Shown: piece after piece, positions 21,480-29,785 of the stretch
Numbering within the stretch: position 1 is the stretch's first letter
Layout: each line of letters starts with the position of its first letter
Assembly: GCF_056712565.1 (NCBI RefSeq)
Contig: NZ_CM160072.1
Length of the DNA: 64,000 nt
Reading direction: 5' to 3' (one strand)
Position numbers and translations under genes: made by a program
The notes under the pieces: model-generated
What the model was told of the DNA's origin: nothing
The model's database searches: none
Seen by the model: the letters and a program-made list of their open reading frames with translations, nothing else

Positions 21480-22574
<1,095 letters not shown>

Positions 22575-22988
22575 TCATTATCACCTCTGCTACTTAAATT
22601 TCCCGCTTTATAAGCCGATTAAATGATGAATAAACGCCCCTGTTAATGAATATCTGGCATGTTGTACTAAAAATCGATGTTTTGCTTTGACAATCCCCTG
22701 GTGTTTTGCGAAAACATTCGAGGAAGAAAAAAAACAGTATTCTTATATGCGCATAACCATGCATGTAAATACCATGTTTACCGTGCTAGTGAAATCTACG
22801 TATGGCGTGGACAGACGCCATTCGTGATGTCGATAGCTGCCACAAGGCAACGGTCTTCTCACCGTAGACCCAGGCATTGCGCGCCGTGAATCTTCATGAT
22901 TTCGGTCTATCGTGACGGGTAGCGACTCTGAACAGTGATGTTTCAGGGTCAGACAGGAGTAGGGAAGGAATACAGAGAGACAATAATA

Positions 22989-23483
22989 ATGGTAGATAGC
23001 AAGAAGCGCCCTGGCAAAGATCTCGACCGTATCGATCGTAACATTCTTAATGAGTTGCAAAAGGATGGGCGTATTTCTAACGTCGAGCTTTCTAAACGTG
23101 TGGGACTTTCCCCAACGCCGTGCCTTGAGCGTGTGCGTCGGCTGGAAAGACAAGGGTTTATTCAGGGCTATACGGCGCTGCTGAACCCCCATTATCTGGA
23201 TGCATCACTTCTGGTATTCGTTGAGATTACTCTGAATCGTGGCGCACCGGATGTGTTTGAACAATTCAATACCGCTGTACAAAAACTTGAAGAAATTCAG
23301 GAGTGTCATTTAGTATCCGGTGATTTCGACTACCTGTTGAAAACACGCGTGCCGGATATGTCTGCTTACCGTAAGTTACTGGGGGAAACCCTGCTGCGTC
23401 TGCCTGGTGTCAATGACACACGGACATACGTTGTTATGGAAGAAGTCAAGCAGAGTAATCGTCTGGTTATTAAGACGCGCTAA
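22989..23483 (+). CDS. lrp: leucine-responsive regulatory protein Lrp
   Basis: 164-aa product MVDSKKRPGKDLDRIDRNILNELQKDGRIS (track ORF starts upstream at 22935). Confidence 0.93.
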   Translation: MVDSKKRPGKDLDRIDRNILNELQKDGRISNVELSKRVGLSPTPCLERVRRLERQGFIQGYTALLNPHYLDASLLVFVEITLNRGAPDVFEQFNTAVQKLEEIQECHLVSGDFDYLLKTRVPDMSAYRKLLGETLLRLPGVNDTRTYVVMEEVKQSNRLVIKTR

Positions 23484-23523
23484 CACGGAACAGGTGCAAA
23501 ATCGGCGTATTTTGATTACACTC

Positions 23524-23539
23524 CTGTTAATCCATACAG
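23524..23539. promoter_or_regulatory. putative LexA (SOS) box upstream of ftsK
   Basis: CTGT-N8-ACAG palindrome (CTGTtaatccatACAG) about 80 bp upstream of the ftsK start; ftsK is known to have an SOS-inducible promoter. Confidence 0.45.
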
Positions 23540-23617
23540 CAACAGTACTGGGGTAACCTGGTACTGTTGTCCGTTTTAGCATCGGGCAGGAAAAGCCTGT
23601 AACCTGGAGAGCCTTTC

Positions 23618-26600
23618 TTGAGCCAGGAATACACTGAAGACAAAGAAGTCACATTGACAAAGTTAAGTAGCGGCCGCCGTCTTCTGGAGGCGTTGCTGAT
23701 CCTTATTGTCCTGTTTGCCGTCTGGTTGATGGCTGCCTTACTAAGCTTTAACCCTTCGGACCCCAGCTGGTCGCAAACGGCCTGGCATGAACCTATCCAT
23801 AATTTAGGTGGGATGCCCGGTGCGTGGTTGGCAGATACGCTGTTCTTTATTTTTGGCGTGATGGCTTACACCATTCCCGTCATTATTGTCGGCGGTTGTT
23901 GGTTTGCCTGGCGTCATCAGTCCAGCGACGAATACATTGATTATTTTGCCGTTTCGCTACGCATCATTGGCGTTTTGGCGCTCATCCTTACCTCCTGTGG
24001 TCTGGCGGCAATCAACGCTGACGATATCTGGTATTTTGCCTCCGGTGGCGTCATTGGCAGCTTACTAAGCACTACGCTACAACCACTGCTACACAGTAGC
24101 GGGGGAACTATTGCGCTGCTCTGCGTTTGGGCAGCGGGCCTGACGCTGTTCACCGGTTGGTCATGGGTGACCATTGCTGAAAAACTCGGCGGCTGGATTT
24201 TAAATATTCTTACCTTCGCCAGTAATCGTACCCGTCGCGATGATACCTGGGTCGATGAAGATGAGTATGAAGACGACGAAGAGTATGAAGATGAAAATCA
24301 CGGCAAACAGCATGAATCACGCCGTGCCCGTATTCTTCGCGGCGCGCTAGCGCGTCGTAAACGGTTGGCGGAAAAATTCATTAATCCGATGGGGCGGCAA
24401 ACAGATGCTGCGCTGTTCTCCGGTAAGCGGATGGATGATGAAGAAGAGATTACCTACACTGCACGCGGTGTGGCTGCCGACCCTGACGACGTCCTGTTTT
24501 CGGGCAATCGTGCAACGCAGCCAGAATATGACGAATACGATCCATTATTAAACGGTGCGCCAATTACCGAACCTGTTGCTGTAGCAGCTGCTGCTACCAC
24601 GGCGACACAAAGCTGGGCTGCACCGGTTGAACCTGTGACTCAGACGCCGCCAGTTGCCTCTGTTGATGTTCCACCTACGCAACCTACAGTAGCCTGGCAG
24701 CCTGTACCGGGGCCGCAAACGGGAGAACCGGTTATTGCACCTGCACCGGAAGGTTACCCACAGCAGTCACAATATGCGCAGCCTGCAGTGCAATATAATG
24801 AGCCGCTGCAACAACCTGTACAGCCACAGCAGCCGTATTATGCGCCTGCGGCTGAACAGCCTGTGCAACAACCTTACTACGCTCCTGCGCCGGAACAGTC
24901 TGCGCAACAGCCGTATTACGCCCCTGCGCCAGAACAACCGGTGGCAGGTAACGCCTGGCAAGCCGAAGAGCAGCAATCCACTTTTGCTCCACAGTCTACA
25001 TACCAGACGGAGCAAACTTATCAGCAGCCAGCCGCTCAGGAGCCGTTGTACCAACAGCCGCAACCCGTTGAACAGCAGCCTGTTGTGGAGCCTGAACCCG
25101 TTGTAGAAGAGACAAAACCCACGCGTCCGCCGCTTTACTATTTTGAAGAAGTGGAAGAGAAGCGAGCCCGTGAACGTGAACAACTTGCGGCCTGGTATCA
25201 ACCGATTCCAGAACCGGTTAAAGAACCGGAACCGATCAAATCTTCGCTGAAAGCACCTTCTGTTGCAGCAGTACCTCCAGTAGAAGCCGCTGCCGCTGTT
25301 TCTCCGCTGGCATCTGGTGTGAAAAAAGCGACACTGGCGACGGGGGCTGCCGCAACCGTTGCCGCGCCAGTCTTCAGTCTGGCAAATGGCGGTGGACCGC
25401 GTCCGCAGGTCAAAGAGGGGATTGGCCCGCAGTTGCCACGACCGAAACGCATCCGCGTGCCAACTCGTCGTGAACTGGCGTCTTACGGTATTAAGCTGCC
25501 CTCACAGCGTGCGGCAGAAGAAAAAGCCCGTGAAGCCCAGCGTAATCAGTACGATTCTGGCGATCAGTACAACGATGATGAAATCGATGCGATGCAGCAG
25601 GATGAACTGGCACGTCAGTTCGCCCAGACGCAGCAGCAACGCTATGGCGAACAGTATCAACATGATGTGCCCGTGAACACAGAAGATGCAGATGCTGCGG
25701 CAGAGGCAGAACTGGCTCGTCAGTTTGCTCAAACTCAACAACAACGTTATTCCGGCGAACAACCGGCTGGGGCGAATCCGTTCTCGCTGGATGATTTTGA
25801 ATTTTCGCCAATGAAAGCGTTGCTGGATGATGGTCCACACGAACCGCTGTTTACGCCAATTGTTGAACCTGTACAGCAGCCGCAACAACCGGTAGCACCG
25901 CAGCAGCAATATCAGCAGCCGCAACAACCGGTAGCACCGCAGCAGCAATATCAGCAGCCGCAACAACCGGTTGCACCGCAGCCGCAGTATCAGCAGCCGC
26001 AATATCAGCAGCCACAACAGCCGGTTGCACAGCAGCCGCAATATCAGCAGCCACAACAACCGGTTGCACAGCAGCCGCAGTATCAGCAGCCACAACAGCC
26101 GGTTGTATCACAGCCGCAGGATACCCTGCTTCATCCGCTGTTGATGCGTAATGGCGACAGCCGTCCGTTGCATAAACCGACGACGCCACTGCCTTCTCTG
26201 GATTTGCTGACACCGCCGCCGAGCGAAGTGGAGCCGGTAGATACCTTTGCGCTTGAACAAATGGCGCGCCTGGTAGAAGCGCGTCTGGCTGATTTCCGTA
26301 TTAAAGCCGATGTTGTCAATTACTCTCCGGGGCCAGTTATCACTCGCTTTGAATTGAACCTGGCACCGGGCGTAAAAGCAGCGCGCATTTCTAACTTGTC
26401 ACGTGACCTTGCCCGTTCACTTTCGACGGTGGCGGTGCGTGTCGTTGAAGTTATTCCTGGCAAACCCTATGTAGGTCTGGAGTTACCGAATAAAAAACGA
26501 CAAACCGTTTATCTGCGCGAAGTTTTGGATAACGCCAAATTCCGCGATAATCCGTCGCCATTAACCGTGGTGCTGGGTAAAGATATCGCCGGTGAGCCGG

Positions 26601-27661
26601 TGGTTGCCGATCTGGCGAAAATGCCGCACTTGTTGGTTGCGGGGACTACCGGTTCCGGTAAGTCTGTCGGGGTGAACGCGATGATCCTGAGCATGCTTTA
26701 TAAAGCACAGCCAGAAGATGTGCGTTTCATCATGATCGACCCGAAAATGCTGGAGCTTTCGGTTTATGAAGGCATTCCGCACCTGTTAACGGAAGTTGTT
26801 ACTGATATGAAAGATGCCGCCAACGCGCTGCGCTGGTGTGTTAACGAGATGGAGCGTCGTTATAAACTGATGTCTGCGCTGGGTGTGCGTAATCTGGCGG
26901 GTTATAACGAAAAAATTGCTGAAGCCGATCGCATGATGCGTCCGATTCCAGACCCGTACTGGAAGCCGGGTGATAGTATGGATGCGCAGCATCCGGTGCT
27001 GAAAAAAGAACCATACATTGTGGTGTTGGTGGACGAATTTGCCGACCTGATGATGACGGTAGGTAAAAAAGTGGAAGAGCTGATAGCACGTCTGGCGCAA
27101 AAAGCCCGTGCCGCGGGTATCCACCTCGTACTGGCAACGCAGCGTCCATCGGTTGATGTTATTACTGGTCTGATTAAAGCGAATATTCCGACCCGTATCG
27201 CCTTTACCGTATCCAGTAAGATTGACTCACGTACCATTCTTGATCAGGCTGGTGCGGAATCACTGCTGGGTATGGGGGATATGCTCTACTCTGGGCCGAA
27301 CTCCACGTTGCCGGTACGTGTCCATGGTGCTTTTGTTCGCGATCAGGAAGTTCATGCCGTGGTGCAGGACTGGAAAGCGCGTGGTCGCCCACAGTATGTT
27401 GATGGCATCACCTCCGACAGTGAAAGCGAAGGTGGCGTGGGCGGTTTCGATGGCGCTGAAGAACTGGATCCGTTGTTCGATCAGGCGGTGCAGTTTGTCA
27501 CTGAAAAACGCAAAGCGTCAATTTCTGGCGTACAGCGTCAGTTCCGCATTGGTTATAACCGTGCAGCGCGTATTATCGAACAGATGGAAGCGCAGGGGAT
27601 TGTCAGCGAACAGGGGCACAACGGAAATCGTGAAGTGCTGGCCCCACCGCCATTTGACTAA
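23618..27661 (+). CDS. ftsK: DNA translocase FtsK (TTG start per track ORF)
   Basis: 1347-aa [25 protein letters not shown]-terminal membrane domain, PQ-rich linker, C-terminal motor with Walker A GTTGSGKS. Confidence 0.93.
25874..26102 (+). repeat. in-frame tandem repeat (39-bp unit) encoding the PQ-rich FtsK linker
   Basis: unit cagcagccgcaacaaccggtagcaccgcagcagcaatat repeated identically at 25874 and 25913, then about four diverged copies ([17 protein letters not shown]). Confidence 0.85.
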
Positions 27662-27672
27662 TTAATGCAACG

Positions 27673-27709
27673 TAGGCCGGATAAGACGCGATAGCGTCGC
27701 ATCCGGTAT
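27673..27709. repeat. REP (repetitive extragenic palindromic) element between ftsK and lolA
   Basis: TAGGCCGGATAAGACGCgatagCGTCGCATCCGGTAT matches the enterobacterial REP consensus. Confidence 0.65.
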
Positions 27710-27819
27710 TCTATCAACTGAAAATTCAGTATTTTCTTCTTTCCTCAAGCTGATTATTAGCCTGGAATAGAGAGTAGAGGGAACTCCCGATTGGGAGTGA
27801 CGTAATTTGAGGAATAATG

Positions 27820-28431
27820 ATGAAAAAAATTGCCATCACCTGTGCATTACTCTCAAGTTTAGTAGCAAGCAGCGTTTGGGCTGATGCCGCAAGCGATCTG
27901 AAAAGCCGCCTGGATAAAGTCAGCAGCTTTCACGCCAGCTTCACACAAAAAGTGACTGACGGTAGCGGCGCGGCGGTGCAGGAAGGCCAGGGCGATCTGT
28001 GGGTGAAACGTCCAAACTTATTCAACTGGCATATGACTCAACCTGATGAAAGCATTTTGGTTTCTGACGGTAAAACACTGTGGTTCTATAACCCGTTCGT
28101 TGAGCAAGCTACGGCAACCTGGCTGAAAGATGCCACCGGTAATACGCCGTTTATGCTGATTGCCCGCAACCAGTCCAGCGACTGGCAGCAGTACAATATC
28201 AAACAGAATGGCGATGACTTTGTTCTGACGCCGAAAGCCAGCAATGGCAATCTGAAGCAGTTCACCATTAACGTGGGACGTGATGGCACAATCCATCAGT
28301 TTAGCGCGGTGGAGCAGGACGATCAGCGCAGCAGTTATCAGCTGAAATCCCAGCAAAATGGGGCTGTGGATGCAGCGAAATTTACCTTCACCCCGCCGCA
28401 AGGCGTCACGGTAGATGATCAACGTAAGTAG
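27820..28431 (+). CDS. lolA: outer-membrane lipoprotein carrier LolA
   Basis: [21 protein letters not shown] signal peptide then LolA core (track ORF starts one codon earlier). Confidence 0.93.
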
Positions 28432-28441
28432 AGGCACTTGA

Positions 28442-29785
28442 GTGAGCAATCTGTCGCTCGATTTTTCGGATAATACTTTTCAACCCCTGGCCGCGCGTAT
28501 GCGGCCAGAAAATTTAGCACAGTATATCGGCCAGCAACATTTGCTGGCTGTGGGGAAGCCGTTGCCGCGCGCTATCGAAGCCGGGCATCTGCATTCTATG
28601 ATCCTCTGGGGGCCGCCGGGTACCGGCAAAACAACCCTCGCTGAAGTGATTGCCCGCTATGCGAACGCTGATGTGGAACGTATTTCTGCCGTCACCTCTG
28701 GCGTGAAAGAGATTCGCGAGGCGATCGAACGCGCTCGGCAAAACCGCAATGCAGGTCGCCGCACTATTCTTTTTGTTGACGAAGTTCACCGTTTCAACAA
28801 AAGCCAGCAGGATGCATTTCTGCCACATATTGAAGACGGCACCATTACTTTTATTGGCGCAACCACTGAAAACCCGTCGTTTGAGCTTAATTCGGCACTG
28901 CTTTCCCGTGCCCGTGTCTATCTGTTGAAATCCCTGAGTACAGAGGATATTGAGCAAGTACTAACTCAGGCGATGGAAGACAAAACCCGTGGCTATGGTG
29001 GTCAGGATATTGTTCTGCCAGATGAAACACGACGCGCCATTGCTGAACTGGTGAATGGCGACGCGCGCCGGGCGTTAAATACGCTGGAAATGATGGCGGA
29101 TATGGCCGAAGTCGATGATAGCGGTAAGCGGGTCCTGAAGCCTGAATTACTGACCGAAATCGCCGGTGAACGTAGCGCCCGCTTTGATAACAAAGGCGAT
29201 CGCTTTTACGATCTGATTTCCGCATTGCATAAGTCGGTACGTGGTAGCGCACCCGATGCGGCGCTCTACTGGTATGCGCGAATTATTACCGCCGGTGGCG
29301 ATCCGTTATATGTTGCGCGTCGTTGCCTGGCAATTGCTTCCGAAGATGTCGGCAATGCCGACCCACGGGCGATGCAGGTGGCAATTGCGGCCTGGGATTG
29401 CTTTACTCGCGTTGGCCCGGCGGAAGGTGAACGCGCCATTGCTCAGGCGATTGTTTACCTGGCCTGCGCGCCAAAAAGCAACGCTGTCTACACTGCGTTT
29501 AAAGCCGCGCTGGCCGATGCTCGCGAACGTCCGGATTATGACGTGCCGGTTCATTTGCGTAATGCGCCGACGAAATTAATGAAGGAAATGGGCTACGGGC
29601 AGGAATATCGTTACGCTCATGATGAAGCAAACGCTTATGCTGCCGGTGAGGTTTACTTCCCGCCGGAAATAGCACAAACACGCTATTATTTCCCGACAAA
29701 CAGGGGCCTTGAAGGCAAGATTGGCGAAAAGCTCGCCTGGCTGGCTGAACAGGATCAAAATAGCCCCATAAAACGCTACCGTTAA
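28442..29785 (+). CDS. rarA: replication-associated recombination protein RarA (GTG start)
   Basis: 447-aa ORF; AAA+ Walker [10 protein letters not shown]; syntenic. Confidence 0.92.

Follow-up and report, generated by a model that had tools for sequence, protein, structure and literature searches.

The gene ftsK, at 23618..27661 (+) of the 64,000-nucleotide stretch of contig NZ_CM160072.1 analysed here (hereafter the window, in whose numbering all coordinates are given), encodes a DNA translocase whose long, low-complexity linker carries two tandem arrays of 39-bp units, designated A1 and A2, and between them two exact copies of a 14-residue motif. The arrays are very probably in-frame minisatellites that drift in copy number within a flexible linker, next to an old twin motif held by purifying selection. 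The linker itself (24191..26188, +; aa 192-857) is the gap between the Pfam domains of the protein, rich in glutamine (15.8%), proline (13.7%) and alanine (12.7%), and is a low-complexity tether from the membrane anchor to the DNA-pumping motor; its counterpart in E. coli K-12 is likewise described as PQ-rich, about 650 aa long, and placed between FtsKN and FtsKC. Variation in the linker repeats is ordinary and already known, being in use for strain typing as locus CVN001 in E. coli and as SENTR2/STTR7 in Salmonella, and offers a textbook case of an essential gene whose in-frame minisatellites vary without harm. Only the conserved island that holds the twin motif, in a linker that is usually described as unconserved, is mildly new.

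Array A1 (24827..24943, +) consists of three 39-bp units encoding 13 aa each, which codon-level parsing places at 24827..24865, 24866..24904 and 24905..24943, and which Tandem Repeats Finder (TRF) recovers at 24833..24943 with a period of 39 (2.8 copies, score 124). Its units are 74-82% identical in DNA, and differ mainly by synonymous changes. Array A2 (25874..26122, +), delimited by the same two approaches, comprises six 39-bp units and a 15-bp partial unit, in the order of two like 13-aa units, a third unit followed by the partial unit, two further like units, and a degenerate last unit. TRF reports A2 in two rows of period 39, at 25874..26002 (3.3 copies, 96% matches, score 237) and 25991..26118 (3.3 copies, 93% matches), and adds a row of period 15 inside the array at 25978..26017. 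The first two units of A2 are identical at 39 of 39 positions, evidence of concerted evolution within the array, while the remaining pairs share 77-95% of their DNA. A 9-mer, GCAGCCGCA, is present twice in each A2 unit, 24 and 15 nt apart, giving rise to repeat spacings of 39, 15 and 24. The partial unit, which encodes QQPQY (25991..26005, +; by codon-level parsing) and marks the allele of the window, corresponds to an A2 unit lacking the 24 bp between its two copies of this 9-mer, in agreement with the period-15 row of TRF and with those spacings. A previous inspection of the same DNA (the sequence-only reading) had described about six tandem 39-bp units ending at 26102, and an upstream set of repeats at about 24830..24950. 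Codon parsing upholds the six units, although the array extends to 26122 and includes the partial unit; the upstream set resolves into the three units of A1, and the tandem-repeat search proposed as a check on these claims is answered by the three period-39 rows above. The coordinates of that reading were accurate to approximately 10-20 nt.

Copy number in both arrays differs widely among E. coli strains. Of 5426 complete E. coli genomes, 5425 contained a match to a 1701-bp linker query, over spans of 1608-1803 bp and with at least 99% identity in just 116 genomes, while megablast detected no ftsK linker in the remaining one; the region of the A2 partial unit reached at least 99% identity in only 117 of the 5426. 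Spans were measured with 601-bp queries in systematic spread samples of 60 genomes from this collection, one sample for each array. For A1, these fell into classes of 523 bp (1 unit; 1 genome), 562 bp (2 units; 20 genomes), 601 bp (3 units; 19 genomes) and 640 bp (4 units; 20 genomes). For A2, spans of 586 bp (6 units) and 625 bp (7 units) were found in 22 and 26 genomes respectively, 601 bp, the class of the window, in three, and 547 bp (5 units) and 571 bp (a non-integer number of units) in one each; the alignment was broken in the remaining seven, five of which were fetched and hold 7.8-8 units. Parsing of 19 alleles, comprising that of the window and 18 others fetched for their diversity, gave 1-4 units in A1 and 3-9 in A2. 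The 18 intact FtsK proteins in this set are 1316-1383 aa long and all in frame, and their protein alignment confines every insertion or deletion to A1, A2 or an acidic 14-aa micro-repeat near the start of the linker (24254..24295, +; aa 213-226; TRF period 9 at 24263..24291), a minor third site at which strain 2014C-3307 (L006) has an additional EY. The same 18 alleles have 59 variable columns in the linker, compared with three in the N domain and two in the C domain.

These comparisons bear directly on the suggestion, made in the sequence-only reading, that the 1347-aa protein of the window differs from the 1329-aa protein of K-12 in repeat number. In K-12 MG1655, A1 is shorter by a single unit (39 bp) and A2 is without the 15-bp partial unit, which together account fully for the 18-aa gap. 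The broader expectation that repeat number would vary among E. coli alleles, rather than be the same in all of them, is likewise borne out by the copy numbers above, and alignment of ftsK among strains, proposed as a further check, gave in-frame length differences that all lie within repeats. Such differences explain the annotated FtsK lengths of 1316-1383 aa. Protein length alone is an ambiguous marker: three combinations of A1 and A2 units (2/6, 3/5 and 1/7, in alleles L001, L011 and L017) each yield a protein of 1329 aa, and length by itself therefore does not identify the allele.

Array A2 is the typing locus CVN001, a 39-bp variable-number tandem repeat (VNTR) of the generic E. coli scheme for multiple-locus VNTR analysis (MLVA; Lindstedt et al. 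2007, cited in PMC8143711), and reported, with five alleles, among the most polymorphic loci of one study (PMC8143711). The published CVN001 primers (PMC8143711, Table 1) each have a unique exact match in the window, the forward at 25761..25779 (+) and the reverse at 26201..26220 (-), and since both are exact and flank A2, the two are one and the same locus, sharing the 39-bp unit, the flanking primers and strain-variable copy number. The allele of the window differs in its extra 15-bp partial unit, and otherwise nothing biological sets it apart. Use of these repeats as strain markers, which the sequence-only reading had proposed, is thus already routine. Across the parsed alleles, in-silico CVN001 amplicons of 328-562 bp fit the offset formula (PS-250)/39. 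The amplicon of the window (25761..26220) measures 460 bp, so that (460-250)/39 = 5.4 and it is called as allele 5; that of K-12, at 445 bp, also rounds to allele 5, and agarose-based MLVA would therefore not separate the two. Reading the sequence of CVN001 is accordingly more informative than sizing the fragment.

The counterpart in Salmonella enterica is a 39-bp repeat in ftsK used as MLVA locus SENTR2/STTR7 (PMC2430564). It resembles CVN001 in unit length and host gene, and a Salmonella fragment among our protein matches (P0008) encodes the same 13-aa unit as E. coli; it differs in being an orthologous locus of another genus, with about nine copies in S. Enteritidis as against six or seven in most of the sampled E. 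coli. By analogy only, the 45-bp VNTR of tolA (SENTR1) is likewise an in-frame minisatellite in a low-complexity spacer that serves as a typing marker (PMC2430564), in another gene and with another unit.

We infer that A1 and A2 expand and contract through mispairing of near-identical units, by either replication slippage or unequal recombination. The identical and near-identical units of A2 would provide long perfect tracts for misalignment, and linker length would shift by steps of 13 aa in either array and, in A2, additionally by steps of 5 and 8 aa, because the doubled GCAGCCGCA in each unit would permit pairing out of register. The A2 allele of the window amounts to a seven-unit array in which unit 4 is short of 24 bp, leaving QQPQY. 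Irregular A2 steps of 5, 8 or 3 aa are present in alleles 536, LCP30S3_I5, TUM14771 and EC_Lstone01. A step of about 13 aa is some 2% of a flexible spacer of about 650 aa; changes of this size would for that reason be tolerated, and copy number would as a consequence drift and mark lineages.

As the region has tandem repeats of highly variable copy number, it could be read as a phase-variable contingency locus, in which repeat changes would switch FtsK on and off, or modify its expression. We attach almost no credence to this explanation, and reject it because the reading frame is preserved: the units involved are of 39, 24 or 15 bp, every one a multiple of three, and none of the 18 intact alleles departs from the reading frame. 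Nor do the arrays offer a switch through promoter spacing, being internal to the coding sequence and distant from the promoter, and the N-terminal domain of FtsK is in any case essential for growth (PMC3140498). The sole annotation of a frameshifted ftsK, a pseudogene record in E. coli A22 (L018, NZ_CP028753.1, 371..4479), has both arrays in frame, with the shift downstream, in the part encoding the motor domain; given that the N-terminal domain is essential, this frameshift is probably an error of sequencing or assembly.

That record, together with the capacity of 39-bp repeats spread over approximately 250 bp to mis-assemble from short reads, might suggest that the variation as a whole is an artefact of repeats collapsed or expanded in assemblies. 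This too is scarcely credible. The collection consists of complete-genome assemblies only, and read pairs and long reads typically extend over more than the length of the array. Moreover, the lengths fall into discrete in-frame classes that are common to many independent genomes, and fragment sizing of CVN001 by PCR in independent laboratories shows several alleles (PMC8143711).

The distribution of copy number over related alleles bears on how it changes. Alleles within 0.5% of the window in non-repeat divergence carry A2 arrays of 62, 65, 83, 91 or 104 aa, and OkiPb01691 and 2014C-3307, which are sister alleles in a neighbour-joining tree built from non-repeat ftsK DNA, carry three and nine A2 units, respectively. 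Copy number in A1 and A2 thus evolves faster than point substitution in ftsK. E. coli recombines often, and the import of entire ftsK linker alleles from other lineages by homologous recombination, rather than slippage in situ, could be proposed as the main source of this diversity; in keeping with such exchange, the A1 unit variants YYATAPEQ and QQSYY are common to alleles that lie far apart in the tree of non-repeat DNA. We nevertheless regard import as unlikely to be the main source, as five A2 lengths on near-identical backbones, and a difference of six units between sister alleles, would need local gain and loss, and the partial units coincide with the internal sub-repeat, as slippage predicts. 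Judged from this tree, the pattern favours recurrent local gain or loss by slippage or unequal exchange, to which import of alleles may contribute.

A further question is whether the resulting lengths are themselves under selection. Copy number in A1 and A2 could be tuned adaptively, for instance if it adjusted how far the motor reaches, or when it acts, with respect to the closing septum; alleles would then reflect adaptation to niche or lineage in place of drift. The linker is required for full FtsK activity (PMC3870252), and contacts FtsZ, FtsQ, FtsL and FtsI, with a length that differs among species (PMC5357621); arrays of an identical 13-aa unit have been retained in both Escherichia and Salmonella, and the amino-acid units of A1 are more conserved than their DNA. 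Adaptive tuning remains, in our judgement, quite improbable. Copy numbers are scattered over the allele tree, such that near-identical backbones differ widely and distant ones share the same numbers, and a single step alters the linker by merely 2% or so. Klebsiella and other genera are PQ-rich at this position but lack a regular array. In S. Enteritidis, an 84-bp indel in ftsK distinguishes isolates, removing two of nine tandem repeats according to the authors, and swapping it between strains left survival in egg white, the one phenotype tested, unchanged (PMC6137255). Growth is also possible without the linker, which is to that extent non-essential (PMC3140498). Near-neutral drift in copy number is more readily compatible with these observations.

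The twin motif is of a different nature. Its two copies, at 25604..25645 (+; aa 663-676) and 25709..25750 (+; aa 698-711), are exact 14-aa repeats containing ELARQ, whereas the longest exact repeat in 500 composition-preserving shuffles of linker residues 192-752 never exceeded 6 aa, which places the match far beyond chance. The copies are non-tandem, with starts 105 bp apart, and are only 81% identical in DNA: eight of their 14 codons differ, with eight synonymous and no nonsynonymous changes. Both are invariant in all 19 E. coli alleles, in a linker with 59 variable columns. The sequence-only reading had found both copies, placing the start of the second some 10 nt too early, and had grouped them with the slippage-prone repeats; this grouping does not hold for a motif that is non-tandem, divergent in DNA, invariant among the sampled alleles and conserved across Enterobacterales. 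We read the pair as an old non-tandem duplication which purifying selection appears to have kept, as the purely synonymous differences would suggest.

Conservation extends beyond the two copies. Residues 610-753 (144 aa) served as query in two protein searches. One, for homologous proteins, yielded short fragments only, which were used to count the motif and were unsuited to comparison over the full length; the other, against 1.84 billion representative proteins, gave just 65 matches, and of those listed, two (P0107 and P0120) were discarded as repetitive unrelated proteins. Named matches, taken over both protein searches, are FtsK of Salmonella, Klebsiella, Cronobacter, Raoultella, Pantoea, Erwinia, Serratia and Xenorhabdus. 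The pattern xLxxxFxxxQxxRY is present in one or two copies per Enterobacterales FtsK, and possibly in three in a truncated fragment (P0071), and in 13 aligned linker segments from several Enterobacterales families copy 2 never varies at its L, F, Q, R and Y. In the same 13 segments, 11 columns are invariant in or just after a basic 18-aa motif (25457..25510, +; aa 614-631), and cross-genus alignment likewise reveals a conserved 26-aa segment, NPFS..FSPMK..EPLF, downstream of the twin motif (25775..25852, +; aa 720-745). The twin motif accordingly belongs to a conserved island, surrounded by low-complexity sequence that is poorly conserved. FtsKL has been said to have no evolutionarily conserved feature (PMC5391129); given the conservation of residues 602-745 within Enterobacterales in these alignments, that statement appears not quite true at the level of the order.

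AlphaFold2, supplied with the 13-sequence alignment, predicts helices at residues 653-680 and 688-711, the first carrying copy 1 in its C-terminal part, four residues before its end, and the second ending with copy 2. Per-residue confidence (predicted local distance difference test, pLDDT) is about 62-83 by block with a mean of 67, and the predicted template-modelling score (pTM) is 0.21; at this moderate confidence the model offers no stable tertiary fold for the island. A profile search of the island against the Protein Data Bank (PDB) gave no meaningful match, and none of the solved structures in the PDB covers the FtsK linker. In the light of this model, the twin motif is probably a pair of short helical recognition elements that would bind a putative partner. 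More tentatively, residues 602-745 could form an Enterobacterales-wide module composed of the basic element, two acidic-flanked xLARQFAxxQQxRY helices and the NPFS..FSPMK..EPLF segment, with the twin motif as a bivalent docking site for a partner in the divisome or in chromosome segregation, and A2 as a mere spacer between module and motor; we hold this to be possible, yet somewhat doubtful. If it proved true, a docking site here would help to map the way in which the FtsK linker connects the divisome with chromosome segregation. A literature search for the ELARQ motif or other FtsK linker motifs found no paper that names it, but the main linker-dissection studies lay outside that search, and an earlier description is possible.

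Several considerations weigh against our account of drifting minisatellites beside a selected motif. The evidence is computational throughout, and recombination that brings in alleles could account for some of the pattern. The case for near-neutrality leans on a single phenotype in Salmonella and on what is generally known about deletions in the linker, and the population figures stem from a 60-genome systematic sample and 18 alleles chosen for diversity, as distinct from a full census. Finally, the AlphaFold2 model of the motif region is only moderately confident, as its mean pLDDT and pTM indicate.

The identity of the gene is secure. The ftsK coding sequence is a single open reading frame (ORF) of 1347 aa with a TTG start, stop codon included in the interval given above, and matches the NCBIfam equivalog PRK10263 (NF007615) over its full length (aa 1-1347), scoring 3085 bits where the cutoff is 1566. 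It encodes an N-terminal 4TM membrane domain (23675..24190, +; PF13491 FtsK_4TM, aa 20-191, E = 5e-42), a motor domain in which the alpha part precedes the FtsK_SpoIIIE ATPase (26189..27154, +; PF17854, aa 858-958; PF01580, aa 966-1179), and a gamma (KOPS/XerD) domain (27461..27643, +; PF09397 FtsK_gamma, aa 1282-1342). The E. coli motor structure (PDB 2IUS) matches residues 836-1347, starting directly after A2, and PDB 2J5P and 5DCF match the gamma domain. Window ORFs place the gene in the order trxB-lrp-ftsK-lolA-rarA, in agreement with the RefSeq annotation of matching E. coli loci, and RefSeq annotates as ftsK the corresponding gene, identical or nearly so, of E. coli MS7163 and UTI89, to which 24600..26300 is 100% and 99.9% identical, respectively. 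In its 4TM, motor and gamma domains, its equivalog score and its gene context, the product is an E. coli-type FtsK/SpoIIIE DNA translocase.

Some minor observations concern the gene and its surroundings. Eleven ftsK matches filed under plasmids (H181-H191) were considered as mobile copies and rejected: they are 0.07-4.9 Mb in size, non-mobilizable, and carry chromosomal ftsK, and are mislabelled chromosomal pieces or whole chromosomes. Two antisense ORFs that overlie A2, at 25502..26095 (-; 197 aa) and 25851..26213 (-; 120 aa), are not regarded as genes, as they are stop-free by-products of CAG/CCG-rich repeats. A scan of 22500..28500 on both strands against Rfam found no RNA family. The ftsK promoter is SOS-inducible, and the intergenic region between lrp and ftsK (23484..23617) contains CTG/CAG-rich stretches, such as TACTGTTGTCCGTTTTAG, which might bear some relation to it.

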